Positions 55 through 40,567 are shown, counted from the first letter of the stretch. The stretch is DNA of 60,126 nucleotides from an uncultured Candidatus Marinamargulisbacteria bacterium (GCA_964443005.1 CAYUBI010000002.1:1-60126); one strand, 5' to 3'. Notes: a model not told the origin generated them from the sequence alone. Numbers and translations: made by a program.

Positions 55-1674
55 TTAGCTTTTATATTTCTCGTAAGCAAGCTTGCGTTGCTCGAAAATT
101 TGTTTTAGTTGATCGTCTGGTGAGAAGTTGCCTTCATATTTTAAAATTTTGCACGTAGGATGCTTGAGTGCTGTTTCAAATGTTTCAATTTCGCTGTTTG
201 GAATAGTTACACTTATTTCCATAAGTTTGCAATTTTTATGGATAAGTGCCCGAGTTAAAATGTGGACTGCTATATTATTGATTTCGTTATAATATAGTAT
301 CAACTTGAAAAGTTTAGAATTTTTATCTTTCATAGAGTCAGCTAATGCTTGAACAGCTATGGTTGAAAAATTATTCCAGCTTAGATCTAAGAAGGTTAGC
401 TTGCAGTTTTCATGTTTAAGGGAATTAGCCAAAGCTTGGACTGCTACATTGGTGAGTTCGTTATAGCCTAGGTCTAAGAAGGTTAGCTTACAATTTTCAT
501 GTTTTAGGGAATCAGCTAAAGCCTTGCAGGCTACATCGCTGATTTCGTCACAACTTAGGGCTAAAGCGGTTAGCTTGCAGTTTTTGTGTTTTAGAGCCTC
601 AGCTAAAGCTTGTGTGCCAGTATCCCGAATATTGTTAAACTTTAATGTTAAGCTTGTCAGCTTACAATTAGGATGTGTAAGCGCCTCCGATAAAAATTCA
701 GTAGCGGTGTCGCTGATGTTATTTTTTATAAAACTTAAATTTGTTAGCATACAGTTTTTGTGCATTAGAGCAGTTGCCAAGGTTTGGATTTCAAGGTTGG
801 TGTAAGCAATATATGCTAGATTCAGATTGGTGTAATTGTTTTTAGAAACGGTTATTTTTTCAATAATTCTTGTTAAGCTAATGCCAGCTGTTGGGCATAT
901 TTTTTCTGGTAGAGTAGATATACCTTTTGCAATAGGTATTGTTTTTTTTTCAGTTGGGGTTACCCTGTTTCTCACAAATTGTTTTTCTTGAGGTGCGGTG
1001 ATTGTTTTAAGATGTTGGTTTGCTAATTCTTGAATTACAATGAAAATAGCATTCTGAAAAATTGCTTTTAAATTTTCATACAACACATCGCTTTGCTGTT
1101 CTATTCCTATCCATAATACCGGCAATAATGTGGTTGCTTCTGAGATAAAGTGAATTAGATTTGCTTGTTTCATGTTGGCACATAGGATTGCGAGGTCTTT
1201 GCAGAATTGGAGCTGGTCAACTGGGGTTTTGTTACCTAGGAAAGCGATTATTTTTTCAAAGGCATCGAGAATATTGGGCGTGGCAATGCCTTCAGCAGTG
1301 GGCAAACCTGCAAGATTGTTTTTCCACAATTGAAATGTAAAAACAATGATTTGTTTTTGTTGACTTGTGCTGAGGCTTGTTTCAGTAGAATGAAGTAGTT
1401 TTGCTAGCTGATTAGCTCTCTTTTTTAATGCTTTATACTGGGCATCGTTAATTTCATTATTTTCTTTTGCGTTTTTCATCGTAACCAGTGCTGTTTTGTC
1501 ATAAGCATATTTTATGGTATTTGCAGCATCATCGAATGCGAGTAGGGCTAGTTGATTTAGCAACGCAAATCGCTCTTTTGACGAATAGCTTGTTGTTTCT
1601 TTTCTAAGTGTAACAGCCATACGGCTAATGGTTGGAGACGGGGCATTGTTTGTTGATACCCGTTTTTGATTCAT
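55..1674 (-). CDS. RNI-type leucine-rich-repeat protein, paralog 1 of 3 (unassigned ~250-aa N-terminal domain, about seven 28-aa LRRs, conserved C-terminal tail)
   Basis: 539-aa ORF. The C-terminal half is a regular 28-residue repeat (LKHxNCKLTxLxLxxNxIxxxxxxALAxx) of the ribonuclease-inhibitor/NLR type. The tail FEQRKLAYEKY is shared with the two upstream paralogs. The ATG overlaps the stop of the upstream gene (ATGA at 1671-1674). Confidence 0.8.
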   Translation of the reverse strand: MNQKRVSTNNAPSPTISRMAVTLRKETTSYSSKERFALLNQLALLAFDDAANTIKYAYDKTALVTMKNAKENNEINDAQYKALKKRANQLAKLLHSTETSLSTSQQKQIIVFTFQLWKNNLAGLPTAEGIATPNILDAFEKIIAFLGNKTPVDQLQFCKDLAILCANMKQANLIHFISEATTLLPVLWIGIEQQSDVLYENLKAIFQNAIFIVIQELANQHLKTITAPQEKQFVRNRVTPTEKKTIPIAKGISTLPEKICPTAGISLTRIIEKITVSKNNYTNLNLAYIAYTNLEIQTLATALMHKNCMLTNLSFIKNNISDTATEFLSEALTHPNCKLTSLTLKFNNIRDTGTQALAEALKHKNCKLTALALSCDEISDVACKALADSLKHENCKLTFLDLGYNELTNVAVQALANSLKHENCKLTFLDLSWNNFSTIAVQALADSMKDKNSKLFKLILYYNEINNIAVHILTRALIHKNCKLMEISVTIPNSEIETFETALKHPTCKILKYEGNFSPDDQLKQIFEQRKLAYEKYKS

Positions 1675-3323
1675 GGTTTATTACCATGCATTTGCTTGTA
1701 TGCAAGCTTGCGTTGTTCGAAAATCTGTTGCAATTTGGTATCATCAGCATAAGGGCCTTTGTAATCAAATATTTTGCAGTTTGGGTCTTTTAACGCCTCT
1801 AGAATTTGTTGCGCGCCATTTTTTCCCATAAAGCAATCAAGGATATTCAAACTTTGTAGTTTACAGTTTTTATGTAGGAGAGCTTCTATCAATAGTTTTG
1901 TTCCTTCAGTATTAATTGGATTATCGTGTAAATCCAGTGCCTTTAGTTTGCCGTTTTCATGTTTGAGCGCATCAGTTAGTGCCTTGATACCCGCGGATTT
2001 AATTATGTTGTCACCTAAAGATAAGGAAGTTAGTTTGCAGTTTTCATGTTTCAAGGCGTTTGCCAATTTAATTGTAGCGATATTTCCGATATGATGATTG
2101 TCTAGGCTTAGGTTTGTGAGCTTGCAATTTCCGTGTATCAGGGTTGTTGTTAACACTTCAATACACTCAATATTAAGAATACCAGCATGAAGATTTGCAG
2201 AATTAGTTATTAATGTTTCTATAAGGCAATTTTTATGAGTTAAAGCGTTGATAAGGTTTTGAAGCTCAGCATTGCTAAACCAGTTTTGTGAGACGTTCAA
2301 AAAGCGTACTTTGTTATTTTCATGTATAAGTGCATTTGTAATTGCATTTATTCCAGCATCATTAATGGCGCTGCGAAAGAGATCTACATCAGTGATATTA
2401 CAATTGATATGCTTAAGCGCTTGTGCCAAAAGGGTCGCGCCAACATCTCCGACGAAAAGCTCATAAGGTCGCTGTCTAAAGCTTAGTTTGGTATATAGGT
2501 TTCCAGGGGCTGATATTTCTTGAATAATTTCCAATATTTCTTGTTTTTCAGCTTCAAATGCTATCGTTGTTTTTTGAGTTTCAGGGATAATTTCTGAATT
2601 TGCTAATAGGTCTTTTATCCCTTTTAGCTTACCAATTTCTTGGTTCGATTTTGCTGTTTCTACTTCGAATAAGCTTTGTGCATTAATTTTATTTTCTAAT
2701 ATTGTTTTTTCTGTTTGAATTAGCGTAGCTAGACTTTTAATGTTGGAATTAACCTCGTGTGCTGTCCCTGCTAGCAGCGCAGGCAGCAATGTGGCAGCTT
2801 CTGAGACAAAGCGAATCATGCCTGCCGTTTTCATGTTAATGCATAATTCGACAAGTTCTCTGCAGAATTGTAGCCTATTGCAAGGGGCTTTGTTGCCTAA
2901 AAAAGTCATTATTTTTTCGATAGCGTCAAGAATGTTGGGAGTGGAAATTCCCTTAGCGGTTGGTAGGCCAATTATGTCGTTTGTCCAAAGTTTGATGGTA
3001 AGAACGATGATTTCTTTTTGTTCTCGCTCGCTTAATCGCGTGTCTCCGGGATAAACCATTGTGGTAAGTTGGGCTGCTCGTTCTTTGATGATGGCATACT
3101 GGCTATCGCTAATTTCGCCAGCAGCTTTTGTCCTTGCGAATTTCTTATATAGCGTTTCATCGTAGGCATATTCAGCAGTATCATTACCCGCGAGTTTTTC
3201 TAGCTGACTCAAGCGTGCCAGTTTTTCTTCTGGAGAATATTGGCTTGTTTGTGTACCCAGCGTAAAAGCCATAGGGCTAATGGTTGGAGTGGCGATACTT
3301 GCTGATATTAGTTTGTTTTTCAT
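1671..3323 (-). CDS. RNI-type leucine-rich-repeat protein, paralog 2 of 3
   Basis: 550-aa ORF. The N-terminal ~190 aa are almost identical to paralog 3. The C-terminal half carries 28-aa LRRs (LKHENCKLTSLSLGDNIIKSAGIKALTDA). ATGA start/stop overlaps occur at both ends (1671-1674, 3320-3323). Confidence 0.8.
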   Translation of the reverse strand: MKNKLISASIATPTISPMAFTLGTQTSQYSPEEKLARLSQLEKLAGNDTAEYAYDETLYKKFARTKAAGEISDSQYAIIKERAAQLTTMVYPGDTRLSEREQKEIIVLTIKLWTNDIIGLPTAKGISTPNILDAIEKIMTFLGNKAPCNRLQFCRELVELCINMKTAGMIRFVSEAATLLPALLAGTAHEVNSNIKSLATLIQTEKTILENKINAQSLFEVETAKSNQEIGKLKGIKDLLANSEIIPETQKTTIAFEAEKQEILEIIQEISAPGNLYTKLSFRQRPYELFVGDVGATLLAQALKHINCNITDVDLFRSAINDAGINAITNALIHENNKVRFLNVSQNWFSNAELQNLINALTHKNCLIETLITNSANLHAGILNIECIEVLTTTLIHGNCKLTNLSLDNHHIGNIATIKLANALKHENCKLTSLSLGDNIIKSAGIKALTDALKHENGKLKALDLHDNPINTEGTKLLIEALLHKNCKLQSLNILDCFMGKNGAQQILEALKDPNCKIFDYKGPYADDTKLQQIFEQRKLAYKQMHGNKP

Positions 3324-3330
3324 TGTGTAG
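2690..3330. repeat. Direct repeat copy A (~640 bp) covering the 5' third of LRR paralog 2
   Basis: Read by eye against 4337-4975. 2762-3239 is identical base for base to 4405-4882 (offset 1643). There is a 3-bp indel near 2750 and a short divergent patch at 3240-3290, then identity resumes through the ATG. Confidence 0.85.
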
Positions 3331-4966
3331 CTCCATGAATTTGCTCGTAAGCAAGGCGGCGGTGCGCTAAAAGTTGTTCCAATTCCGCGTCATCATTATT
3401 AGGGCCCATGTAATCAAATATTTTGCAGCTTGGGTCTTTCAGTGCGGATAGAATTTGTTTTGATCCTTCTTTTCCTATTTGACATGAATCAATAGTAAGC
3501 AGAGTTAGATTACAGTTTTTGTGGCGTAAAGCGTCTGCCAAAAATTGTGCCCCGGAGCCGCCCAACGGATTACGGTGTAAGTACAGTGATTCCAGTTTGT
3601 TGTTTTCGTTTTTTAAGGCTTCAGCTAGTGCTGTCATGCCGCTTGGCGTTATTTTATTACTAAATAAAATTAAATTAGTTAGCATACAGTTTTTATGCTG
3701 TAGCGCCTCTGCTAGCAAAATTGTGCCGAAATCTTTGATATGAGCACATCCTAGGTTAAGCTCGGTTAGCCTGCAATTTTTATGTTTCAACGTCGTTGCC
3801 AAAAGCTGAATGTCTTTTTCGTGAAGTTTGCTTTTCGCATAGGAAAAAATAAAAACTTCTAATTTACAGTTTTCATGAATTAGTGCTTCTCCTAATGGTT
3901 GGAATCCATGTGGGGCAAGATAATTCTCCGAGATATCCAAAACGCGCAACTTGCAGTTTTTGTGTTTTAGCGCGCTTGCGAGTGGTGCTACTCCATGGCC
4001 AGAAATGTTTTGGCGAAACAAATTTAAATCAGTGATATTACAATTTTCGTTCTTAAGTGCATCCGCTAAAAGTTGGGCACCCACGTCTCCGATGCGATCA
4101 CGATCAAGGGGACCACCGGGGTAATCTAGTTCGGTATAGGGATTTCCAGGGGTTGTTATTTCTTGAATAATTTCAAGGATATTTTTGCTGTTTACCTTAA
4201 AGGGTATTCGTGGTCTTTGAGCTAGTGGAACATTTCGTAAATTAACTGATGAGCCTTTTGTTTCAGCAATATCCATAGTCGTTTCTTTTTTTTCTGCAGC
4301 CAAGCGTTCTGCTGCTACGTGTTGGCCGGCAATATCCTTTTCTAATATCATTTTTTCTGTTTGAATTAGCGTAGCTAGGCTTTTAATGTTGGAAACCTCG
4401 TGTGCTGTCCCTGCTAGCAGCGCAGGCAGCAATGTGGCAGCTTCTGAGACAAAGCGAATCATGCCTGCCGTTTTCATGTTAATGCATAATTCGACAAGTT
4501 CTCTGCAGAATTGTAGCCTATTGCAAGGGGCTTTGTTGCCTAAAAAAGTCATTATTTTTTCGATAGCGTCAAGAATGTTGGGAGTGGAAATTCCCTTAGC
4601 GGTTGGTAGGCCAATTATGTCGTTTGTCCAAAGTTTGATGGTAAGAACGATGATTTCTTTTTGTTCTCGCTCGCTTAATCGCGTGTCTCCGGGATAAACC
4701 ATTGTGGTAAGTTGGGCTGCTCGTTCTTTGATGATGGCATACTGGCTATCGCTAATTTCGCCAGCAGCTTTTGTCCTTGCGAATTTCTTATATAGCGTTT
4801 CATCGTAGGCATATTCAGCAGTATCATTACCCGCGAGTTTTTCTAGCTGACTCAAGCGTGCCAGTTTTTCTTCTGGAGAATAGATTGCTACTGGAGTTGA
4901 TGCAGTAAAGGCCATGTGGCTGATGGTTGAAGTGGCGATACTTGCTGATATTAGTTTGTTTTTCAT
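3320..4966 (-). CDS. RNI-type leucine-rich-repeat protein, paralog 3 of 3
   Basis: 548-aa ORF with the same architecture. The LRR part has diverged from paralog 2 while the N-terminal domain is near-identical. It starts 47 nt downstream of the vWA gene on the same strand. Confidence 0.8.
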   Translation of the reverse strand: MKNKLISASIATSTISHMAFTASTPVAIYSPEEKLARLSQLEKLAGNDTAEYAYDETLYKKFARTKAAGEISDSQYAIIKERAAQLTTMVYPGDTRLSEREQKEIIVLTIKLWTNDIIGLPTAKGISTPNILDAIEKIMTFLGNKAPCNRLQFCRELVELCINMKTAGMIRFVSEAATLLPALLAGTAHEVSNIKSLATLIQTEKMILEKDIAGQHVAAERLAAEKKETTMDIAETKGSSVNLRNVPLAQRPRIPFKVNSKNILEIIQEITTPGNPYTELDYPGGPLDRDRIGDVGAQLLADALKNENCNITDLNLFRQNISGHGVAPLASALKHKNCKLRVLDISENYLAPHGFQPLGEALIHENCKLEVFIFSYAKSKLHEKDIQLLATTLKHKNCRLTELNLGCAHIKDFGTILLAEALQHKNCMLTNLILFSNKITPSGMTALAEALKNENNKLESLYLHRNPLGGSGAQFLADALRHKNCNLTLLTIDSCQIGKEGSKQILSALKDPSCKIFDYMGPNNDDAELEQLLAHRRLAYEQIHGATQ

Positions 4967-4975
4967 TGTTTAACT
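4337..4975. repeat. Direct repeat copy B (~640 bp) covering the 5' third of LRR paralog 3
   Basis: Partner of 2690-3330. The two antisense shadow ORFs 2740-3054 and 4386-4697 translate to the same peptide, confirming DNA identity. Confidence 0.85.
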
Positions 4976-5013
4976 CTTTTCATTTTCGTTTTATTTGGCT
5001 GTCTTGCAAGAAC

Positions 5014-7044
5014 TTAACCCTGTTTTTGTGATACTCCAGCTCTAACTACGGCTTCTGCATGTCTGCCGGTTAACTGAACTTTCCCGCCGGAAACAGCATT
5101 AGACAATACTTTGATGGATACTTTTTCCAAATCTCTTAGCGTTTTTATCTTGTAGATGTTTTCGCTAGGAACACCTGCTGTTGTAAAAATTTTTATGGTT
5201 TCTTCTTTATATGCGATTGTGCTATCTTTTTGAGGGGTCAAAAAAATGAGCGACCCACTGGATCGATTAAAGTATTCATGTAAGGCTTTCAGTTTGTTGT
5301 TTGTTACTTCTTGAAATCCTGATAAATCCGTATACCAAATATTAAAATAGGGCATTTTTTCTGCGTTTTGAGAGGCTTCATTGAGTATGTTAGGATGAAT
5401 GTGCGTAAAACCACTTTTATGTTTTAGTAGTGTTGCCACGATTTTGTCTTTGTCACGACTCCAGCCAGTATCAATCACCGAATCATCAAACATAATTAAA
5501 CGTGTCATGACTTTGGGGTTAAGCTTAAACCAGCTAAATATGGCTCTTCCGGGGCCAACTCGAGTTGCAGATAGTTTGCCAAAAGGGGATTCACTGGAAT
5601 CTGACATGTCAACCCAGACCATGAGATTGGGGTATCCTACGCCCTCGGCTCTAGCCTTGCCTTTGATAGGAGAAAACTTTAGGGTTGTAATTCCGGGAAT
5701 TTCTATGCCATGTGTTAATAACGAATGAGCATGATCTGTTTCCGCATAGCGTGAGGCAGGTACTGTTGTTACCATAATGGGTCTGCCTTTGGCTTGGAGT
5801 TGGGGGAATTTTTTAATATCAAAAAGATCCAGCTGCATTAATTTTCTGTATAAAGGATCTAGCGATTCATTGGGTGTGGTTTTGTTGCCAGTAGCTGCGA
5901 TATCTGCAGCTATATCGTTATAATCTGCCTGGGCTTGCCTGTAATCCCTATCTTCTCCGCCTGCACTTCTGGCTTTGCCAATTAATTCGCCAGCGACAAC
6001 ATCCAAGATGCCTTTGATGATATTCTCGTATTCAGGATTATTTTTATCAGGTAATGTATCTAAAATGTTGTTTTTGCCAAAATCAAAACTGGGGATATCT
6101 TCATTTTCAGCAGGCAAATATGGCCCCATTATTTCAATAAAGCGGTCTATGGCTTGTTCGCCAGCCAAATTTCCGGAAAACAAATCGATCAGCTTTTGAG
6201 CTCGTGATTCCAAGTCTTCATCAAAATGATGGGTTGATATTTCTTTTTCGCCTTTGATGGTCATGATAGTTTGCGTAGCTGCAGGGTCGTTGGCATAAGT
6301 ATCTTGCAAAATGGTGTTGTCCGGGAATTTACAAAACTTTTCATAGGACCTTAGAATGATAGCCCAATACGGGCTATGTTTTTGAACTTGTGTATCCTCT
6401 GTTTTTTGTTGTTGTTTTTCATAACGCCATTCTCGTCGAATTCCTTTATAAATTTCTCCAGTTCCTGCAGTGGCTATTTCGTTGTTGGCAATTAATTGAT
6501 GGTCTGCAGTAATAATCGGATAATTAACTTTAAAGTCATTAAAATCATTAGCAATCCTGCTAATTTGTTGCCCGAGAATATTCATTTTAATACCTGCATG
6601 GCTAGCAATGCTTTTTTTTAAATTTTGTCGTTGGATAATTGCAGAGGAATAGGTTCCCGGATCTTTCCCATGATTATATTCATGTCCTATAATTTGAGCT
6701 GTCCAAGGAAAAATGCCCATTTCTAATATTTTGTAGATATTATAAAACGTTTTTCCTTCATGCGGGGGCTTCTGGGGATGGCCAGTCCCTACTCTCCAGG
6801 CTATTTCCTGGCTTAGGTCTTTACCTAAAAAATCGTATTTTTTTGTTTGCGAAGGACTTAAGAAAAAAGTGGGAGGGCCGGTTACGTCTGCATACTGTCG
6901 TTTAGCTGCGTTTTCATAGGCTTGTTGTAGATTTTCCAGTAGGGTTGAGTCTGAAAAATAGTCCCATTTTCTAGCAGAAACAGCACTTATACCCAGGCGC
7001 TTGTCAATATATTCGGATAAGGTTTGGGCGACGATCTTGTGCAT
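5014..7044 (-). CDS. von Willebrand factor A (MIDAS) domain protein with a ~460-aa unassigned N-terminal region containing an HExxH motif
   Basis: 676-aa ORF. The C-terminal ~190 aa fit a vWA fold: NLMVWVDMSDSSES (DxSxS MIDAS, nt ~5604-5618), RLIMFDDSV, GFTHI and NIWYTDLSG. The N-terminal region has IIGHEYNHG (HExxH, nt 6670-6684). It starts 6 nt after the MoxR-like gene. Confidence 0.65.
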   Translation of the reverse strand: MHKIVAQTLSEYIDKRLGISAVSARKWDYFSDSTLLENLQQAYENAAKRQYADVTGPPTFFLSPSQTKKYDFLGKDLSQEIAWRVGTGHPQKPPHEGKTFYNIYKILEMGIFPWTAQIIGHEYNHGKDPGTYSSAIIQRQNLKKSIASHAGIKMNILGQQISRIANDFNDFKVNYPIITADHQLIANNEIATAGTGEIYKGIRREWRYEKQQQKTEDTQVQKHSPYWAIILRSYEKFCKFPDNTILQDTYANDPAATQTIMTIKGEKEISTHHFDEDLESRAQKLIDLFSGNLAGEQAIDRFIEIMGPYLPAENEDIPSFDFGKNNILDTLPDKNNPEYENIIKGILDVVAGELIGKARSAGGEDRDYRQAQADYNDIAADIAATGNKTTPNESLDPLYRKLMQLDLFDIKKFPQLQAKGRPIMVTTVPASRYAETDHAHSLLTHGIEIPGITTLKFSPIKGKARAEGVGYPNLMVWVDMSDSSESPFGKLSATRVGPGRAIFSWFKLNPKVMTRLIMFDDSVIDTGWSRDKDKIVATLLKHKSGFTHIHPNILNEASQNAEKMPYFNIWYTDLSGFQEVTNNKLKALHEYFNRSSGSLIFLTPQKDSTIAYKEETIKIFTTAGVPSENIYKIKTLRDLEKVSIKVLSNAVSGGKVQLTGRHAEAVVRAGVSQKQG

Positions 7045-7050
7045 TTATTC

Positions 7051-16053: not shown

Positions 16054-19000
16054 ATGATTAATTATAAACGAATTAGCTTTAACGAAATTTACTTGTCAAA
16101 ATCTTTGAAAGATTTTAGAGAAGCTGTAGCTGCAATGGATAAAGGGGATGTTGTTGTTTCTCCTTTTCTGGAATCACGTAAAGGCAGGAACAAATCATTC
16201 TTTAAAGATAACGATTATTTATGTTCAGTTGCGGATAAAGTCATTTCTAGAGTCAGCTTTGCTGATATTGCGGGCTTTTCGGAAAAACAAAAAATTATTG
16301 AAATATTTGAGAATAATGAAAATGATAGCCTCTTGGATTTAACTTTTACGAATCCAAAAAATATATATTTACTTTCTAAAGATTTAAACACAAGCTTTGA
16401 TTACATTGATAAAGGATCCAAGGAACAATATTATCAATTAATTAGAGATGTGAAAGGTACTCTTTATAAGTGTCCTAGTATCTCTTTGGGTGAAAATAAA
16501 AAGGAACTTATGCTCCTTAGAGGTAAAACCGCTGTATATACTGATATCAACGAAAATATAAGTTTAATTTCTGACGAGATATATTTAGATAAACGCGGGG
16601 GAATTAATCTATACACGCCTTCGGATTATAGTTTAGGGTCTAATAACAAGAAGATAATCGTTAGAGTTAGTTTTACTCATATTGCAGGCTTTTCTGAAAA
16701 ACAAAAAATCATTGAAATTTTTGAGTATCATAAAGATGATATCATCTCAGATTTAACTCCAAAGAATCTAAAAGTTATATATTTACTTTCTAAAGATTTA
16801 AAAACAGGATTTGATTACATTGATAAAGCTTCCAAAGGCCAATACTACCACGTAATCAAAGATAAAAATGGTATTTTTTATAAGTGCCCTTCTTTGTTTG
16901 TTAATGACAATAAGGAAGAAATTATGTTGCTAAGAGGAAAATCAGCAGTACTTAATCAATCTAATGACAATGAATCTTTTATTTCTGGAATTATTAATTT
17001 AGGTAGCACTGGGTTAGTCGGTCTCTTTAGTGAGACAGATTATCTACTACGTTCAAAAAATAATAAAATAATTTGCCGAGTAAGTTTTGCTAATATTGTA
17101 GGTTTTTCTGAAAAACAAAAAGTTATTGAAATTTTCGATGTGAATGAAAAGATCAGTTATTCTGAGTTGGTTATACAAAATCCAAAAGTTATATATTTAC
17201 TTTCTAAAAATTTAGAAACAGGATTTGATTACATTGAGAAAGGATTCCGCGGACAAAACTATCAATTAATTAAAGATAAAATGGGTACTTTTTATAAGTG
17301 TCTTACTTTAGCAGGTGAAAACAAAAATGAAATAATGCTTTTAAGAGCGAAAACAGCTGCATATACTGATATTACGACAAATAGAAGTTGGATTTCTGGC
17401 GAAATATTTTTAGATAAACATGGGCGAGTTAATCTATACACGTCTTCGGATTATTTTATAGGGTCTAACAACAAAAAAATAGTAGTTAGAGTTAGTTTCA
17501 CGGATATTGTGGGCTTTTCTGAAAAACAAAAAATAATTGAAATTTTTGAATATCATAAAGATGATATCATCTCAGATTTAACTCCAAAGAATCTAAAAGT
17601 TATATATTTGCTTTCTAAAGATTTAGAAACAGGAGTTGATTATATTGATAAAGGACCTAAAGGGTCTAGAGGTCAAAACTATCATGTAATCAAAGATAAA
17701 AATGGTACTTTTTATAAGTGTCCTACTTTAGTTCTAGGTGGAAATAAAAATGAAATTATGTTGCTTAGAGGAAAATCAGCAGTCCTTAATCCTTCGAATG
17801 ACAGGGCCTCTTTTGTTTCTGACGTTATTAATTTAAATAAAACGACGAGTTTATTCAATCCAAATGATTTTCTATTAGTTTTAAGTACTAATCAAATAAT
17901 TTGCAGAGTAAGATTTGTCGATGTTACTGGCTTTTCTGAAAAGCAAAAAATTATTGAAATTTTTGAGTATGATAAACATAATAGTCACTCAGAGTTAACT
18001 CTAAAAAGTCCAAAAATTATTTATGTGCTTTCTAAAGATTCGAAAACAGGATTTGATTACATTAATAAAAAGATAAAAATCTACAAAACTAAAGATAATC
18101 AGTTAATGTCGATGAGTAGAGAAAATAAATATTCTAATAAAAATAAAGCTTTTGAAGAATTAAAAAAAAGAGAGCAATCTGGATATGGGAACAATCTTTT
18201 ATCTATGCAAACTGGACGACATGCTGATATCGAGCTTTTTGAGGCTTGTAGAAAATATAACATAGAATTACCTCGCATGTATGAAGATTCTTTTTTCGAG
18301 GCAGAATATTTAAACGAATCGCTTGTTGAATCAATATTCAGCCCGAATCCTGAAATAGTTTTTATTGAATCAACCGTGGATATAGTGACAACTAAGGTAA
18401 ATTTTATGATGCATGAGTTAGCGGAATTATTTAAAATTGAAACTGACTCTATTTCTATATCTAAATTGAAACACAAAATTTATGATTTACGTAATAGTAA
18501 TTTTGGGAAAGATCATTCGACGCTCAGACAATTTGTCCGTCTAGAAACACCTGATCTCATGGGCGATGATTATAATATTAGTAATAGTTGCTTTGAAAAT
18601 ATCGCTTTGCAAGATGACAAATTTCAAGAAGCAGCAGTTAATATTGCCTTGCATCAAAAATCAAAAGTGATCTTGATTCAAGGGGGTGCGGGTAGCGGGA
18701 AAACAACTGTATTATGTGAAATAGCTCACCAATTTGTAAATAAAGATAAACGTGTTTTGGTTGTTAGCCACAAGAATGAAGCCGTTGATAATCTGCTTAT
18801 CAGATTAAGAAATAGTGGGATTAGTATAAAAAGAGTTGGAATAGTAGAAAATATTCGCGAAGAATTACAGGAGGATATTTATAAAGAAGAAGAAGAGCCT
18901 ATTGAAGCTTATGTTTTGGGTGTTACGGTTGATACTTTAAGCATGTCAAAATCGCTCAAAAACAGGAAATTTGACATTGTCATCATGGATGAAGCAGGAA

Positions 19001-20430
19001 CCATTAATGAAGTAGATACTTTAATCGCTGCTAGCAGAGCCAGAGAGAAAATTATTATAGCTGGAGACCATTTTCAGTTAAAGCCTTTTAGGGATCATCA
19101 ATTCATAAAAGATAGAGCTGAAGAGTTTGTAACTAGCATTACAACAAGCGGAATGGAAACCTTATGGGATACAGGCTATCCTCAAGTATTTTTAGCTAAA
19201 AATTATCGGTGTCATCCTTTAATCAGTATACTTCTGAGCAGGACAATTTATGGTAACAAAATGGTGCCGAAACCGTGGCTATTATTAGAGGAGGATACAA
19301 TAAGAGTTAGAGATATTAAAAAAGACGGCAATAAAGACAATGAAGAAAAAACTACAGAATCTAGACCCTTGTATTTAGAGCTGAACACAAAAAACAAAGA
19401 AAATACAGTTAATAAAAACAGTTATTTTAATAAAAAAGAAGCTGAAGCAGTCATAAAGGAATTTGAAAAAGCTATAGCTTCAGGATATCCCATTGAAGAA
19501 ATCACTATTCTTTCACAATATAATGCCCAAGTAGATGTAATCAGACATTTATTATACGATTATTTAATGAAAAATTATTATAAGGAACAGGAAATTAAGG
19601 ACTCAACATCTATGGCTAATGGTAATGTCGGAATTCGAAGAACGTACATTACAGATGCTGATATAATGCTTGATAAAGGCCTTACTTTAAGTAAGGAGGA
19701 CATTGCATCCTTAGTTAGGAATCAGGTGAAAACAGTTCAGAAATATCAAGGACGAGATAACTCAGTAGTAATTCTGAGTTTTGTAAGAAGTAACAAAGCA
19801 CCTAGTGAAATTGGCGATATTGGCGATATAAATAATGGCATTCTTAATGTTGCACTTAGTAGAAGTATGGACAGATTAATCCTCGTGGCTGATGTTGAGT
19901 TGCTATCCAATCCAAAAGCAAATGCAGAAGGATTTAGAATCCTTTATAAGGAATTAGAAAATATTAAAAAAATAGCTAACAATTTATTTGCAGAACAACA
20001 AAAATATCGAGAATTTAGTCTTAGAGAATTGATTCAATATAAGAATGGCAAATTAGATCGAGAATTATCTGAGACTAAGGTCATCTCAATTGGAGATCCA
20101 AAATATAAGCTTACCCTAGACAATGAAAAATTAGTTGTGATAGAAAAATACTTTTTAAAGCAACTTAAACGAAACAATCACAGTAACACCAACGAATTTA
20201 TGACAGCAAATGAAAGAGAAACCATTGAAAGACTTCATGCTTCAGTAATGTATGGACAAGAAACTCTTAGCATTAACAGCGGAGAAGTTGGAGATTTAGC
20301 AGATAATTTCCCTGATATAGTAGAAGCGAAATATGTACGTAATCGAGCTAATTCCACTAAAACTAATGTTGTTTATATTATTAAATGGATTAAAAATAGC
20401 AAAGGGAATTATTCTACTATTAAGGCTTAG
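16054..20430 (+). CDS. Fusion protein: five tandem ~138-aa modules of unknown family, a linker, an Upf1/DNA2-like SF1B helicase (AAA_11/AAA_12 type) and a ~190-aa C-terminal tail
   Basis: 1458-aa ORF. Helicase motifs: I VILIQGGAGSGKTT (nt ~18682-18705), II IVIMDEAG, III IIIAGDHFQLKP, IV LAKNYRCHP, V VQKYQGRDNSVVILSF, VI LNVALSRSMDRLILV. The N-terminal repeats are described separately. Confidence 0.85.
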   Translation: MINYKRISFNEIYLSKSLKDFREAVAAMDKGDVVVSPFLESRKGRNKSFFKDNDYLCSVADKVISRVSFADIAGFSEKQKIIEIFENNENDSLLDLTFTNPKNIYLLSKDLNTSFDYIDKGSKEQYYQLIRDVKGTLYKCPSISLGENKKELMLLRGKTAVYTDINENISLISDEIYLDKRGGINLYTPSDYSLGSNNKKIIVRVSFTHIAGFSEKQKIIEIFEYHKDDIISDLTPKNLKVIYLLSKDLKTGFDYIDKASKGQYYHVIKDKNGIFYKCPSLFVNDNKEEIMLLRGKSAVLNQSNDNESFISGIINLGSTGLVGLFSETDYLLRSKNNKIICRVSFANIVGFSEKQKVIEIFDVNEKISYSELVIQNPKVIYLLSKNLETGFDYIEKGFRGQNYQLIKDKMGTFYKCLTLAGENKNEIMLLRAKTAAYTDITTNRSWISGEIFLDKHGRVNLYTSSDYFIGSNNKKIVVRVSFTDIVGFSEKQKIIEIFEYHKDDIISDLTPKNLKVIYLLSKDLETGVDYIDKGPKGSRGQNYHVIKDKNGTFYKCPTLVLGGNKNEIMLLRGKSAVLNPSNDRASFVSDVINLNKTTSLFNPNDFLLVLSTNQIICRVRFVDVTGFSEKQKIIEIFEYDKHNSHSELTLKSPKIIYVLSKDSKTGFDYINKKIKIYKTKDNQLMSMSRENKYSNKNKAFEELKKREQSGYGNNLLSMQTGRHADIELFEACRKYNIELPRMYEDSFFEAEYLNESLVESIFSPNPEIVFIESTVDIVTTKVNFMMHELAELFKIETDSISISKLKHKIYDLRNSNFGKDHSTLRQFVRLETPDLMGDDYNISNSCFENIALQDDKFQEAAVNIALHQKSKVILIQGGAGSGKTTVLCEIAHQFVNKDKRVLVVSHKNEAVDNLLIRLRNSGISIKRVGIVENIREELQEDIYKEEEEPIEAYVLGVTVDTLSMSKSLKNRKFDIVIMDEAGTINEVDTLIAASRAREKIIIAGDHFQLKPFRDHQFIKDRAEEFVTSITTSGMETLWDTGYPQVFLAKNYRCHPLISILLSRTIYGNKMVPKPWLLLEEDTIRVRDIKKDGNKDNEEKTTESRPLYLELNTKNKENTVNKNSYFNKKEAEAVIKEFEKAIASGYPIEEITILSQYNAQVDVIRHLLYDYLMKNYYKEQEIKDSTSMANGNVGIRRTYITDADIMLDKGLTLSKEDIASLVRNQVKTVQKYQGRDNSVVILSFVRSNKAPSEIGDIGDINNGILNVALSRSMDRLILVADVELLSNPKANAEGFRILYKELENIKKIANNLFAEQQKYREFSLRELIQYKNGKLDRELSETKVISIGDPKYKLTLDNEKLVVIEKYFLKQLKRNNHSNTNEFMTANERETIERLHASVMYGQETLSINSGEVGDLADNFPDIVEAKYVRNRANSTKTNVVYIIKWIKNSKGNYSTIKA
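16240..18100 (+). repeat. In-frame tandem coding repeat, five copies with a 411-417-nt period (starts 16240, 16654, 17068, 17479, 17896; the last is truncated)
   Basis: Each unit begins (I/V)xxRVxFxx(I/V)xGFSEKQK(I/V)IEIF and contains YLLSKDLxTGFDYIDKG, YKCP and EIMLLRGK. Units 2 and 4 share near-identical DNA (for example 16711-16800 vs 17536-17625, offset 825). Units 1 and 3 share a different tail (I(S/Y)LDK.G.(I/V)NLYT.SDY). This gives an A-B-A-B-(partial) super-repeat. Confidence 0.9.
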
Positions 20431-20482
20431 ATAAATGGCGGATAAATATTAAAATATTCTATAATAAATAGGAGGGTTTAAG

Positions 20483-20923
20483 ATGGATAAATCATTAGCA
20501 ATTTTTGAAGACTATAAAATTAGACGACATTTTGATGAGAAAAAGGAAATTTGGTATTTTTCGGTGGTGGATATAGTTGCAGCACTTACTGGGAGCGTAA
20601 ATCCTCGTGATTATTGGTTCAAGATGAAGATAAGAGGAGAAAGTGAAGATGGTCTTGAACTGTCGACAATTTGTCGACGGTTGAAAATGAAGGCTACTGA
20701 ATGACTGAAGCCGAGTTAATTTTTACTGCTTTAGCGGAATTAACAACTCACAGTATCGCTGAAAACATCGAGGCTAAAGGTATGAGCGAAAACAAAAAAA
20801 GCTGAACAAATTGGCGGTAAAGTAGCCAAAACTGCACGTGTTGACTTTGAGTCGAAAACAGGCAGAAAAGTAATATCAGGAGAGAATTATTTGCAACCAA
20901 GAATTATTAAATTGAGGGGTTAA
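20483..20923 (+). pseudogene. Decayed Bro-N/DinD-like (DNA-damage-inducible protein D / antirepressor family) gene
   Basis: The N-terminal 73 aa (LAIFEDYKIRRHFDEKKEIWYFSVVDIVAALTGSVNPRDYWFKMK) match the Bro-N family. A frame change occurs at 20701 and the middle of the protein appears to be missing. The C-terminal part continues in another frame (TEAELIFTALAELTTHSIAENIEAKG). A second frameshift lies at an A-run (~20795-20805), followed by AEQIGGKVAKTARVDFESKTGRKVISGENYL and a stop at 20921-20923. Confidence 0.6.
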
Positions 20924-20994
20924 GATGGATATAAAAAAACAAAAACAAGCCCGTATCAGGAACTTTTGTTGCATTCAGCTCAGCGTAACTAAGG

Positions 20995-21014
20995 CTAGTA
21001 TGTTACAATACTAG
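20995..21014. promoter_or_regulatory. Palindromic candidate operator overlapping a -10-like box upstream of hicB-hicA
   Basis: CTAGTAT-GTTACA-ATACTAG is a 7-bp perfect inverted repeat with a 6-nt spacer. TACAAT at 21004-21009 lies inside it. It sits ~26 nt upstream of the hicB ATG, and an AAAGGAG Shine-Dalgarno sequence follows. Confidence 0.35.
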
Positions 21015-21039: not shown

Positions 21040-21276
21040 ATGAGTGAAATGATGTTTAATTTACATATCGAAAAATTACCTGAGGGATTATATTTGGCAA
21101 CTAGTGAAGATATTCCAGGACTTGTTGCTCAGGGGCGTACCATAACTGAGACAGAGGAAATTGCTAGAGATGTTGCTAAAAGGTTAATAGAATCTTATCA
21201 TGAACATGGGGATCGGATAACCTTACATAAGCCACAGAGAGTGATGAATCTTCAATTATCCGTTGGGGTTGCTTAG
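21040..21276 (+). CDS. hicB: HicB-like antitoxin (UPF0150 / RNase H-like fold, no appended DNA-binding domain)
   Basis: LHIEKLPEGLYLATSEDIPGLVAQGRTITETEEIARDVAKRLIE matches the HicB N-domain consensus (xGGYxAxxPDLPGCxSQGxTxEEA). It ends 2 nt before hicA. Confidence 0.7.
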   Translation: MSEMMFNLHIEKLPEGLYLATSEDIPGLVAQGRTITETEEIARDVAKRLIESYHEHGDRITLHKPQRVMNLQLSVGVA

Positions 21277-21278
21277 CG

Positions 21279-21500
21279 ATGACCTTGCTGTCCGGGTTTT
21301 CGTATAAAAAGGTAGTTAAAAAAATACGACAATTTGGATTTGTATTTGATAGGCAAGCTGCTGGTAGTCATGAAATATGGTGGAATCCAGTTTCTCGTCA
21401 GCGAACAACTATTCCTAATCATCCTGGAGATATTCCTGCAGGGACTTTAAAGGCAATTTTGAAGCAAGCTGATATTGATGTTAAGGATTTTTTGAAATAG
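21279..21500 (+). CDS. hicA: HicA-family mRNA interferase toxin
   Basis: 73 aa. KKVVKKIRQFGFVFDRQAAGSHEIWWNP...TTIPNHPGDIPAGTLKAILKQADI carries the YcfA/HicA signature (GSH...P.H.g.i..gtl..Il+qa). Confidence 0.8.
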   Translation: MTLLSGFSYKKVVKKIRQFGFVFDRQAAGSHEIWWNPVSRQRTTIPNHPGDIPAGTLKAILKQADIDVKDFLK

Positions 21501-35670: not shown

Positions 35671-36475
35671 GGTAGGAGCTCCTGACAAGTGGGCCTGCAA
35701 AAACTTTCATTTCGATCGTATTACCAAAATCAGCAAATGCGGAAAATTCGGTTGGCGTAACATAACGTTTCACAGGATAATGATGGTTACTCGGTGCTAG
35801 GTATTGCCCAATCGTAAATATATCCAGTGGAATTGTTGCGACTAAACGAATCATTTCAATGACGTTTTCATTGGTTTCTCCAATTCCAACCATGATTCCA
35901 CTTTTTAGTTTTATGTGTGGAAAGTGTTTTTTAGTATAGTTAAGTAGCGATAACGAGCATTCAAAATTTCCTTGAGGGCGAATGTGTTGGAAAAGTTGTG
36001 GAACTGCTTCTAGGTTATGATTAAAAATAAATGGATTTGCGTTAAGTACTGTTGTTAAGGCTGATATGTTTCCTTGAAAATCTGGGGTGAGTACTTCAAC
36101 GCGAATATTTGGAAATTCGTTGTGAATCATGTTGATGATATCCGCAAATTGTTGTGCACCTCCGTCAGAAAGGTCGTCTCGAGTGACAGAGGTAATAACA
36201 ACATAGGATAAATTGAATTTGCGGATTGTTTCAATAATTCGTTCTTTTTCAGAAGGATCAATTGGATTTGGAATCCCATGGTCAATTGCGCAGAATTTGC
36301 AGCTTCGAGTACAGCGATTTCCAAGTATGAGAAATGTCATTTGTTTGTTTGAAAAGCATTCGCCTCGATTTGGGCATAGTGCTGCTTGGCAAACTGTATG
36401 AAGCCCGTTGGGCAATTGTGAAGCTAAAAAGCGATTCTTGCGAATCGGGTTAATTAAGTATTCTGGCAAAGTCAT
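35651..36475 (-). CDS. lipA: Lipoyl synthase
   Basis: CQAALCPNRGEC is the auxiliary cluster motif and CTRSCKFCAI is the radical SAM motif. An ATGA overlap with lpdA occurs at 36472-36475. Confidence 0.95.
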   Translation of the reverse strand: MTLPEYLINPIRKNRFLASQLPNGLHTVCQAALCPNRGECFSNKQMTFLILGNRCTRSCKFCAIDHGIPNPIDPSEKERIIETIRKFNLSYVVITSVTRDDLSDGGAQQFADIINMIHNEFPNIRVEVLTPDFQGNISALTTVLNANPFIFNHNLEAVPQLFQHIRPQGNFECSLSLLNYTKKHFPHIKLKSGIMVGIGETNENVIEMIRLVATIPLDIFTIGQYLAPSNHHYPVKRYVTPTEFSAFADFGNTIEMKVFAGPLVRSSYHAQDLA

Positions 36476-37848
36476 TGTGACGAAGGAGGTATGGTTTCTG
36501 AAAGGGTTATAAACGCTTTTTCAAGGATTTCTTGTAATGTAGGATGCGCAAAAACAATATTACAGAGTGCACCCAGTGAGATTTTCTCCTGAATTGCAAG
36601 TGTTAATAACGGTAAAAATGTTTCGGCTTCTATTCCTGTGACAAGGGCGCCAACAAGGTGATCGTTTTTAGAATCATAGAGTAATTTGCAAAACCCAGTT
36701 AGTTCGCGTGTGATTTGTGCCCGTCCCATTAGTTGAAATGGAATTGAAACAATGCGATAGCTATGATTTTTTTGAAGATGTTGTTCTTGAAGGCCGATTG
36801 AAGCTATCATGGGTTGACTGTATATAACGGATGGGATTAGTGCTGGCCTGGAATCTGCGACCAAGCTTTGTCCTTGTTGTATAGATAGAATGTGTTCGAT
36901 TGCGCATTTGCCTTGATATGAGGCAGCATGAGCTAGCATGTTAACGCCATTGACATCCCCAATTGCATAGATATAGGGATAATGGGTTTGATAGTATTGA
37001 TTAATAGAAAGATAACCTCGTTGGGTTGTTTTTAGGTCAAGTGAGGTTGCAGGGATTGTTGCACTTCGACCCATAGCTATGAGTACGTGGCTGGCTGTGA
37101 TGGTTGTATTATCATCTAAGGTAATGATGATTGAACCAGACTCTTGGCGAATGAGAGTTTTGACGCTGTGATGTGTAAAACAGTCGATTTTCCGATGGCG
37201 AAAATGATCCATGATAATGGTTGCTGCTTCGATATCTACAGAGGGAAGCAATCGTGATTCTTGTTCAATAATCGTCACTTTAGTCCCTAAAGCTGATAAC
37301 CATTCTGCAGTTTCAATGCCAATAACTCCTCCACCAATGATAACCAGATCTGTGGGAATGCGATCAATTGATAAAAGATCGCGACTCGTAATTGTTTTGT
37401 CTTTAAAAGCAACTGGAACTGTGTCGTGACTGCCAGTTGCTATGATGATGTAATCAACAGCATAAAGTTCGTTGTTAGCAGAAATATGGTGTTCATCTGC
37501 AATAACTGCTGTTGCCTTAACGTATGTTATTTTTGCTTGATCAATGAGGTGATGAATGCCGGATTCTAGGCGAGTTAATAGTCTTTTTTTACTGGCTAAG
37601 AGCTTTTGAAAATCAATGGAAACTTCTTTTACATTGAGCCCGTCTCGTTTTGTTAATGATAGTTGATGAAGATATCCGGTAAGGTGAAGGAGTTGTTTGG
37701 TTGGGATGCATCCGCAATGAAGGCAGGTTCCCCCTAATTTTTCAGACTCAAACAAAATAATGTTGAATCCTTTTTTCGCTGCATGTAACGCAGAAACGTA
37801 GCCTGCAGGACCGCCGCCGATAATTCCAATAGTGGTATTTTTTTGCAT
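36472..37848 (-). CDS. lpdA: Dihydrolipoyl dehydrogenase
   Basis: IIGGGPAGY is the FAD fold, GGTCLHCGCIPTK is the redox disulfide, IIGGGVIGIE is the NAD fold, and a C-terminal HPT interface motif is present. Confidence 0.9.
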   Translation of the reverse strand: MQKNTTIGIIGGGPAGYVSALHAAKKGFNIILFESEKLGGTCLHCGCIPTKQLLHLTGYLHQLSLTKRDGLNVKEVSIDFQKLLASKKRLLTRLESGIHHLIDQAKITYVKATAVIADEHHISANNELYAVDYIIIATGSHDTVPVAFKDKTITSRDLLSIDRIPTDLVIIGGGVIGIETAEWLSALGTKVTIIEQESRLLPSVDIEAATIIMDHFRHRKIDCFTHHSVKTLIRQESGSIIITLDDNTTITASHVLIAMGRSATIPATSLDLKTTQRGYLSINQYYQTHYPYIYAIGDVNGVNMLAHAASYQGKCAIEHILSIQQGQSLVADSRPALIPSVIYSQPMIASIGLQEQHLQKNHSYRIVSIPFQLMGRAQITRELTGFCKLLYDSKNDHLVGALVTGIEAETFLPLLTLAIQEKISLGALCNIVFAHPTLQEILEKAFITLSETIPPSSQ

Positions 37849-37876
37849 GCAGTAATTTTACCGCAAAGCTAGGAAA

Positions 37877-38869
37877 TTAGCTAATTCGTGCAACAGAATT
37901 GCCAATGAGTAGGTTGGCAGATATTTTGATTGTTAAATGTGTTTTACTGAGAAGTTCGAGAAAGTTGTTTTTCATAAATTCAACGCTTTGTTCGCCTAGC
38001 GCAATGCGGTCAACATAGGCTGTTGTTAGTGTAGGCATTGGGGGTTCAAAAAATCGTGGAAGATGAATTCCATCAAAACCTGTAATTGAAATGTCGTCAG
38101 GGATGCGTTTGTTGTATTTTCTAGCCATCATGTATAAATAGTAAGCAGTAAGATCATTAACGCACATGATTGCTGTTACTTTAGGGTTTTGAGAGATAAT
38201 TTTATTCCAGGCGATTTCGATTGTTTGAAGATTATCGTAATCTGCTTGAAATACAAGTTGTGGATCAAAGGTTGGAATCGTTTGGGCAATGGCTTGTAAG
38301 AATTCTTGCTGAATTACTTCGTTGGGAGTATCTCCGAGCAGTACAGCAATTCGGCGATGGCCGCAATTTAGCACAAATTCAGCCATCATTTTAGTAGCTG
38401 CAATACGTTCGATATAGATCGATGGGATTTCTGTTTGTGTTGCGCTAGGGTGGCCGCAGTTTAGAATCGGAATGCTATATTTTAGTGCGCGATCGTAATA
38501 TTTGTCAGGTGTTTTTCCAATGGTTAGGATTCCTTGGATGTCGTATATTTCAGAATAGTCCATATCGAAATTGTCAAGTATGCGAAGCTGAAGATTGTGT
38601 TTGGCAGCTTTGCGAATTGCACCGTAAATGACATCATTATAAAATTCATTTTGATACATTGTCGGGTAATTTGGAATGAGCAGTCCAAGGTGTTGAAATT
38701 TATTGAGTATTTTGTTATAGCCTTGAGTTTTAATTTGGTAGTAAATTTGTTCCCGAACTTGTTTTGAAATTTTGTAGGGTTTGTTAATTGCTAATGACAC
38801 TGTGCTTTCGGAGACGTTACAGCTAGATGCAATATTTTTTAGCGTAATTGAAACAGATGGGTGTGACAT
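37877..38869 (-). CDS. LacI-family transcriptional regulator
   Basis: The helix-turn-helix is ITLKNIASSCNVSESTVSLAINKPYKISKQVREQI, followed by a periplasmic-binding-protein-like sugar-binding fold. The start is set at the ATG at 38869 (AGGAG upstream) rather than the TTG at 38914. Confidence 0.8.
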   Translation of the reverse strand: MSHPSVSITLKNIASSCNVSESTVSLAINKPYKISKQVREQIYYQIKTQGYNKILNKFQHLGLLIPNYPTMYQNEFYNDVIYGAIRKAAKHNLQLRILDNFDMDYSEIYDIQGILTIGKTPDKYYDRALKYSIPILNCGHPSATQTEIPSIYIERIAATKMMAEFVLNCGHRRIAVLLGDTPNEVIQQEFLQAIAQTIPTFDPQLVFQADYDNLQTIEIAWNKIISQNPKVTAIMCVNDLTAYYLYMMARKYNKRIPDDISITGFDGIHLPRFFEPPMPTLTTAYVDRIALGEQSVEFMKNNFLELLSKTHLTIKISANLLIGNSVARIS

Positions 38870-38983
38870 AAAAAGGCTGCTCCTAGAATTCGCGTTTTTA
38901 GTTGTTAACAACAAAGATATCGTTAAAAAACTAAAACTATTTCAGGGTATTTTCTTTTTTTGCCAAACAAATGTATTTATTTT

Positions 38984-40462: not shown

Positions 40463-40567
40463 ACGATTTCTCCTGTTGATTATATACATTGAGGATATTT
40501 TTTCATAATTATATCATGAGAATGGCGGACATAATAATATGTTTTGTTGATTCGTCAAAAACTTGGT

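Follow-up and report, generated by a model that had tools for sequence, protein, structure and literature searches.

The 60,126-nucleotide stretch of DNA analysed here in full (the window), which comes from an uncultured Candidatus Marinamargulisbacteria bacterium, carries a gene that joins an array of tandem modules to an Upf1-like helicase of superfamily 1B (SF1B), and the question raised by this locus is what such a protein would recognize and what its motor would act upon. A preliminary description of the window had proposed a single-gene defence or surveillance factor akin to the Mokosh helicases. The analysis favors, with a confidence falling a little short of even, a different reading, namely that of a stand-alone, lineage-restricted helicase of the Upf1/IGHMBP2 type, probably catalytically competent, in which the module array would serve as a multivalent binding platform.

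The gene is an uninterrupted open reading frame (ORF) of 1458 codons at 16054-20430 (+), as the preliminary description had placed it; at a GC content of 30.6%, an ORF of this length would be expected by chance with a probability of about 1e-52, and the ORF list contains no competing overlapping ORF of more than 125 amino acids (aa) in the same interval. The encoded protein is laid out as five modules of about 138 aa (aa 1-705), a linker of 150 aa, the SF1B core, and a tail of about 173 aa. Its relatives were sought among 5.8 billion proteins and 1.84 billion representatives, in 185,579 species genomes, in 241 million metagenome records, and in viral contigs, and all of these collections together returned two, P0001 and the protein encoded at locus L002. 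P0001 is a metagenomic protein of 1091 aa, encoded at loci L001 and L003, which was found by searching with the C-terminal half of the window protein; the other matches of this half were generic Upf1-like helicases with several-fold lower scores, and the nearest proteins outside the family are prokaryotic IGHMBP2-like helicases of about 640 aa. The window protein and P0001 align end to end by BLASTP (28% identity, E 1e-110), the alignment spanning the N-terminus, three homologous modules of about 113 aa, the LFEAxRxxxIELP block of the linker, the core, and the tail, and a signal peptide or membrane segment is absent from both sequences.

The second relative, of 3164 aa, came to light when 185,579 species were scanned, each represented by a single genome, and is encoded at 3122-12616 of a 186-kb contig of a metagenome-assembled genome. 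Its N-terminus carries a hydrophobic segment and then about 1650 aa without a Pfam match, following which six tandem modules of about 112 aa (336-bp period) occupy the same position as the arrays of the window protein and P0001; the linker, core, and tail are those of the family, with 38% identity to P0001, and are followed by an extension of about 140 aa. Across linker, helicase, and tail the three members share 36-39% identity, and tandem modules stand directly N-terminal to the linker in each of them, five in the window protein, three in P0001, and six in the L002 protein. The family is defined by the linker of about 150 aa, the helicase core, and the tail of about 170 aa, preceded by an expandable module array. 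Metagenome contigs added solely a JGI copy of the contig of P0001, and no member was found in viral contigs, phage genomes, or plasmids, the plasmid matches being to generic helicase cores at 22-26% identity.

As judged from its sequence, the protein contains an ordinary Upf1-like SF1B motor that is apparently active and comes nearest to the IGHMBP2-type helicases. Motifs I, Ia, II, III, IV, V, and VI begin at aa 877, 903, 979, 1004, 1051, 1232, and 1265, respectively, and include GGAGSGKT (877), DEAG (979), GDHFQLKP (1004), YRCHP (1051), QGRD (1232), and NVALSRS (1265). Both Pfam domains of the core exceed their gathering cutoffs of 27 (AAA_11 with 82.2 bits, 6.6e-23; AAA_12 with 103.3 bits, 1.7e-29), which together with the motifs between aa 877 and 1271 confirms that a complete SF1B helicase is present where it had been described. 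The catalytic Lys, Asp-Glu, Gln, and Arg are invariant across the three-member alignment, and among solved structures those nearest in sequence are of IGHMBP2 (4b3f, E 5e-18), DNA2, and Upf1/Nam7. The linker bears a conserved LFEAxRxxxIELP ... (D/A)EEY block in the window protein, P0001, and the L002 ORF. The tail ends in a short conserved block, and weak PDB matches of the coiled-coil type suggest that it may be mainly helical; beyond these it has no PDB match, and it shows neither a Pfam match nor an HxKxxxxD motif, so that its earlier characterization as lacking a nuclease motif holds. No effector domain was found in either linker or tail.

With the IGHMBP2-family and Upf1-like helicases (AAA_11 plus AAA_12, COG1112, TIGR00376), the window protein shares the two-RecA core and all of motifs I-VI, and TIGR00376 is its best NCBIfam match, yet the score of 159.8 bits, spread over three stretches, is below the cutoff of 348.9, and membership in the IGHMBP2 family was rejected on this ground. 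The protein also differs from IGHMBP2, Upf1, and DNA2 in having no R3H, zf-AN1, CH zinc-knuckle, or DNA2 nuclease domain, as judged by the best 25 of 38 Pfam matches and by inspection of its Cys and His residues, and it adds to the IGHMBP2 plan a family-specific linker, a tail, and the module array. Its motifs I and II lie about 100 aa apart, the spacing in IGHMBP2 being presumably about 170 aa, and in the PDB alignment 26 of its residues stand opposite a stretch of about 85 residues of IGHMBP2, which we take to be domain 1C, so that the accessory insertion may be reduced or missing. Assignment to DNA2 was rejected with PF08696 unmatched among the best 25 of 38 Pfam matches and with the 11 cysteines scattered rather than clustered, and assignment to Upf1 proper because there is no Cys/His cluster for a CH domain and the N-terminal 705 aa are made up of repeat modules.

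The proposed relationship to Mokosh deserves separate attention, since Mokosh helicases have been shown to defend (Millman et al. 2022, bioRxiv 10.1101/2022.05.11.491447). Mokosh is marked by a phospholipase D (PLD) nuclease, fused in type II or adjacent in type I, and by a Ser/Thr kinase in the MkoA of type I (bioRxiv 10.1101/2022.05.11.491447). The window protein is alike in its Upf1-like COG1112 helicase, and it matches MkoA in PADLOC (E 4.2e-45), but the match is confined to model positions 782-1101 of 1112, which is the shared helicase half. No PLDc domain is found among the best 25 of 38 Pfam matches, no HxKxxxxD motif in the protein, and no PLD nuclease among its neighbours, and a Ser/Thr kinase is likewise missing from the best 25 of 38 full-protein matches as well as from the scans of module, linker, and tail. 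Mokosh membership was rejected for these reasons, and with no phage or viral relative in addition, the single-gene defence or surveillance factor of the preliminary description is not established. Other bacterial Upf1-like fusions (DUF4011, DUF2726, MTES REase, PLD, or RecB-like fusions; ProA, PLuB helicase-like, PDC-S37) similarly combine an SF1B core with extra domains, but their accessory domains are absent from the window protein, which has a tandem array of unassigned modules instead; matches to families of the ProA, PLuB, and PDC-S37 type were weak and restricted to the core (PLuB 103 against a cutoff of 999, ProA 35 against 1500). The family stands apart through its own linker and tail, and most of all through an array of unassigned modules that can expand.

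That the array consists of five tandem modules of about 138 aa, as had been read from the sequence, was borne out by a 414-bp period in TRF, by five domain matches (E <= 1e-53) of a hidden Markov model (HMM) built from the modules, and by conserved blocks recurring at that period; a gap-free repeat search also returned 5 copies, with spacings of 414/414/411/417 nt. The well-conserved core of each unit comprises the blocks RVSF..GFSEKQKIIEIFE, PKVIYLLSKD, FYKCP, and EIMLLRGK, besides which each unit has a segment of about 40 aa that occurs in two flavours. Module 0, the most divergent copy, resembles the N-terminus of P0001 in starting at the "YK" strand, module 3 has module 1 as its closest paralogue (75% identity), and the second half of module 4 has diverged and grades into the linker. 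The arrays of all three proteins are mildly net basic, with isoelectric points in the common range of 9.0-9.9.

None of the searches assigned these modules to a known domain, in agreement with the preliminary description. The N-terminal 749 aa had no match among the 5.8 billion proteins, and a five-unit profile, run with full HMMER against the 1.84 billion cluster representatives, recovered only the window protein itself; this profile missed even P0001, and its sensitivity is therefore limited. Pfam, NCBIfam, PADLOC, and PHROGs gave nothing credible for modules, linker, or tail, and the module profile matched one SH3 domain only among PDB sequences (E 0.25). One window module with its flanking hairpins (aa 120-285) was modelled with AlphaFold2 from an eight-row alignment of five window and three P0001 modules, and the model, with a predicted local distance difference test score (pLDDT) of 74 and a predicted TM score of 0.73, shows a beta hairpin, one helix, and six strands, then the next hairpin. 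The L002 module model (pLDDT 76) has one helix followed by seven strands, a make-up comparable to that of the window module, and the modules of the family, of about 110-140 aa, are each predicted to combine a single helix with seven or eight beta strands. Foldseek returned nothing at E <= 0.001 for the window module model (best E 0.88 in PDB and 0.18 in BFVD; TM <0.3) and no fold match in PDB for the L002 model (best E 0.075), the two models together giving best E values of 0.075-0.88 with TM <0.4. The predicted module fold matches nothing recognised, and given the shallow alignment and the moderate confidence of the model, no new fold is claimed. Ribosomal protein S1 has six S1/OB domains, and multi-KH proteins are likewise composed of repeated nucleic-acid-binding domains; the window array resembles them by analogy only, as a series of small, beta-rich, mildly basic tandem domains, and its modules resemble OB, S1, KH, or SH3 folds neither in sequence nor, to a significant degree, in structure.

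Comparison of the modules within and between proteins indicates how the arrays arose. Identity among modules is 41-75% within the window protein, 31-43% within P0001, and 44-76% within the L002 protein, and only 18-27% between the window protein and P0001; since identity within each of the latter two proteins exceeds that between them, the arrays have been amplified or homogenised separately in each lineage. The window units follow an ABAB pattern (U1/U3 65% identity, U2/U4 76%), which, together with a 204-nt stretch that is 91% identical between U2 and U4, indicates a recent duplication of a two-unit block. Pairwise dN/dS (the ratio of nonsynonymous to synonymous substitution rates) between units is 0.34-0.42, and 0.17 for one pair with a partial fifth unit, from which it follows that the modules are maintained as protein under purifying selection, somewhat relaxed, with no positive selection seen at this resolution. 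No homology was detected between the L002 modules and those of the window protein and P0001 (hhalign probability <1%; negative HMM scores), and two weak BLAST segments in the same register were not taken as evidence. Pfam Pcf11_C gives a summed match to the L002 array at 8069-10051 (+), across the six modules and centred on an RRFYDE(D/E)LKEW(I/V)YE block (summed E 4e-12); as no single stretch is significant, the assignment was rejected, the sum being probably inflated by the repeats.

Table 1. Features of the module-helicase gene and its downstream neighbours (window coordinates)
Feature	Position	Strand	Basis
Whole gene (1458 aa plus stop)	16054..20430	+	ORF list; full-length BLASTP homology to P0001
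Module 0 (aa 1-135)	16054..16458	+	HMM domain match aa 1-150, score 167; alignments
Module 1 (aa 136-273)	16459..16872	+	HMM domain match aa 141-285; AlphaFold model aa 120-285
Module 2 (aa 274-411)	16873..17286	+	HMM domain match aa 285-422
Module 3 (aa 412-551)	17287..17706	+	HMM domain match aa 405-563
Module 4 (aa 552-705)	17707..18168	+	HMM domain match aa 563-705; alignment
DNA tandem repeat beneath the modules	16249..18069	+	TRF, 414-bp period, 4.4 copies, score 1263-1435
Family-specific linker (aa 706-855)	18169..18618	+	Conserved in all three members; no Pfam match
Upf1-like SF1B helicase core (aa 856-1285), motifs I-VI	18619..19908	+	Pfam, PDB sequence matches, motif positions
Conserved C-terminal tail (aa 1286-1458)	19909..20427	+	Three-member alignment, 26-30% identity
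Degraded PDC-S13-like / phrog_15286-like neighbour gene	20483..21000	+	PADLOC, PHROGs, three-frame translation
hicB-like (21040-21276) and hicA (21279-21500)	21040..21500	+	Pfam, PHROGs

The setting of the gene had been described as that of a mobile or defence element, in a very A+T-rich gene next to a Bro-N pseudogene and hicAB. The gene is indeed poorer in GC (30.6%) than the window as a whole (37.9%), and the GC profile stays at 26-33% over 15700-20500 and at 37-42% outside. The third codon positions of the gene have a GC content (GC3) of 0.23, which is low but not outside the 0.21-0.39 seen in neighbouring genes; GC1 and GC2 are low as well, so that much of the low GC stems from codon positions 1 and 2 and is thus partly a matter of amino-acid composition. 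Directly downstream, a 73-aa ORF at 20483-20704 represents the N-terminal quarter of PDC-S13 (PADLOC E 2e-24, model positions 5-73 of 286; phrog_15286 E 7.5e-19), with C-terminal remnants following in other frames, and such an N-terminal fragment with frameshifted remnants behind it identifies a degraded gene. The pseudogene is consequently real, but it matches PDC-S13/phrog_15286, and its 73-aa ORF has no match to Pfam Bro-N. Of the hicAB pair beyond it, hicA is secured by Pfam HicA_toxin (5.8e-20), and the hicB-like gene is only weakly supported (phrog_497 2.6e-5, Pfam HicB_lk_antitox 0.027); a glutamate-synthase-like operon comes directly after the pair. On the upstream side lies a divergent ORF of 1722 aa at 10571-15739 (-), with a sub-threshold DUF2460 match only, which looks outer-membrane-like from its C-terminal ...KIKF ending.

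L001/L003 and the window come from related organisms, orthologues in shared blocks having 45-80% identity, and the helicase gene occupies different loci in the window and in the L003 genome, in both cases near toxin-antitoxin genes. P0001 is encoded inside a stretch of about 11 kb (L003 8870-19961) between genes for a pyridine-nucleotide oxidoreductase and an aminoacyl-tRNA synthetase, the window counterparts of which (36472-40489) have a single LacI-type gene between them. In the same stretch are a toxin gene of the DUF4258/BrnT type, which overlaps an ORF of 95 aa, and genes for a histidine-kinase-type ATPase and for a protein with a domain like the C-terminal domain of the RNA polymerase alpha subunit, besides several unknown genes. 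The L002 gene stands after tilS and a phosphorylase gene and before a methyltransferase/phosphatase ORF of 2855 aa, which extends over L002 12761-21328 (+) and contains CheR-type, other methyltransferase, and histidine-phosphatase domains. The three loci share no conserved gene partner, no recognised defence system was found in the neighbourhoods of the window gene, L003, and L002, and the P0001 and L002 genes match their surroundings in composition. What stands of the mobile or defence context are the non-syntenic loci and the toxin-antitoxin and PDC-S13-like neighbours; what speaks against it are a GC3 within range, homologues of ordinary composition, and the position of one of them beside tilS. 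The different loci, the nearby toxin-antitoxin genes, and the degraded PDC-S13-like neighbour favour an accessory status of the gene, and the support that the context lends to a defence role is weak to moderate.

Elsewhere in the window, five consecutive ORFs of 539-676 aa occupy 55-8925 (-), of which the first three are paralogues with LRR_6 leucine-rich repeats (LRR) of the ribonuclease-inhibitor type, unusual in bacteria, and the last two have no Pfam match; fliS adjoins them at 9162-9614. A giant ORF of 2561 aa with Big_13 and FlgD_ig domains lies at 52250-59935 (+). GC skew is positive on the plus strand in almost every 1-kb interval of 1-60126, irrespective of gene orientation, a pattern in keeping with a contig confined to a single replichore.

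In the reading favoured here, the mildly basic module array would be a platform that binds a polymeric ligand multivalently, the likeliest ligand being single-stranded nucleic acid or a nucleoprotein, and it would recruit or tether the motor there. The ATP-driven motor, with a 5'-3' polarity expected from its family membership, would translocate along, unwind, or strip the substrate and may recruit other factors, and the tail may mediate oligomerisation or regulation; as the protein has no nuclease, degradation, if it occurs, would depend on other factors of the cell. It is reasonable to infer that a polymeric ligand is recognized multivalently, and several points have to be set against the reading as a whole. 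The net charge of the window array is modest, +17 over 700 aa, with module 0 neutral, and the ligand assigned to the array is putative. That L002 carries the same platform built of different modules is inferred from position and size. The module models, built from 6-8 sequences, reach only moderate confidence (pLDDT 74 and 76), and with alignments so shallow the missing fold match could reflect model error; weak matches to OB folds (SSB, ExoVII, LysRS) and to the hot-dog fold did recur, and were rejected as far from significant.

The main alternatives differ in what the array would be for. It may be that the protein is a lineage-specific housekeeping helicase of RNA or DNA metabolism, engaged for example in RNA decay or ribonucleoprotein remodelling, in which the modules play the role of repeated S1/KH domains; this would agree with the presence of the gene in two related genomes (orthologues 45-80% identical), the host-like composition of the P0001 and L002 genes, the housekeeping type of the L002 neighbours, the purifying selection on the modules, and a core nearest to IGHMBP2-family helicases. 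It is nevertheless rather unlikely, in view of the extreme rarity of the family, with three members in all collections searched, the lack of synteny between the two related genomes, the compositionally deviant window copy beside toxin-antitoxin genes and defence debris, and an array whose length and even module type vary. Rarity and change of locus would instead suit a single-gene factor against phages or mobile elements, in which a fast-evolving array senses a phage component and the helicase aborts infection, for instance through the consumption of ATP or the stripping of complexes engaged in replication or transcription. Such a role also draws on the hicAB genes and the degraded PDC-S13-like candidate defence gene adjoining the window gene, the toxin gene of the DUF4258/BrnT type that shares with P0001 the insertion of about 11 kb in L003, the GC content of the window gene below that of its flanks, the lineage-specific module arrays of variable copy number, and the resemblance of the core to MkoA, given that Mokosh helicases defend (bioRxiv 10.1101/2022.05.11.491447). 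We consider it unlikely, since the protein has no nuclease or other effector domain that could be found, the PADLOC match is limited to the generic helicase half, none of the three neighbourhoods holds a recognised defence system, the homologues are host-like in composition, one of them having tilS and a phosphorylase gene as neighbours, inter-module dN/dS is <1, GC3 lies inside the range of the neighbours, and the phage and viral collections contain no relative.

A more specific version can be drawn by analogy with STAND/Avs proteins, in which arrays of LRR or tetratricopeptide repeats form pattern-recognition surfaces: the family might be a single-protein immune sensor-motor, in which a re-amplified array of a previously unseen fold gates a nuclease-free Upf1-like helicase against invading nucleic acid, a conjecture that we would put forward only as a long shot. 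Instead of binding nucleic acid, the array could also serve as a spacer or as a scaffold for protein-protein contacts, for example by anchoring the helicase to the envelope or to a complex of giant proteins. The L002 homologue, with its hydrophobic N-terminal segment, its extra region of 1650 aa, and the 2855-aa multidomain ORF after it, lends itself to this explanation, as do the wealth of giant and LRR proteins in the window genome and the failure of the modules to match any known nucleic-acid-binding fold, but neither the window protein nor P0001 has a signal peptide or membrane segment, no partner gene is conserved across the loci, and the explanation appears improbable. As to an artefact, the contig is apparently metagenome-assembled, the protein forms a singleton cluster, and repeats are hard to assemble, all of which would be compatible with a mis-assembled array or a decaying gene. 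The longest exact repeat within the array is, however, only 59 nt, which makes a gross copy-number error of assembly unlikely, the units differ by 18-33% at the nucleotide level, the frame of 1458 codons is uninterrupted in DNA of 30% GC, and homologues of the same layout occur in independent assemblies, so that this last explanation is highly improbable.

The platform-and-motor reading concerns a clade of Upf1-like helicases that underlies nonsense-mediated decay, the functions of DNA2 and IGHMBP2, and Mokosh immunity. The family is a well-documented orphan architecture in uncultured bacteria, and its value is at present that of a lead rather than a result; its orphan module and the lineage-specific re-amplification of the array merit structural and biochemical attention. 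If the modules are a new fold, they would add an undescribed solution of substrate recognition to the Upf1-like helicases. With the same core joined to arrays re-amplified in each lineage, in 3, 5, and 6 copies and from two module types between which no relationship is detectable, the family constitutes a compact natural experiment, which bears on how helicases acquire and tune multivalent recognition.

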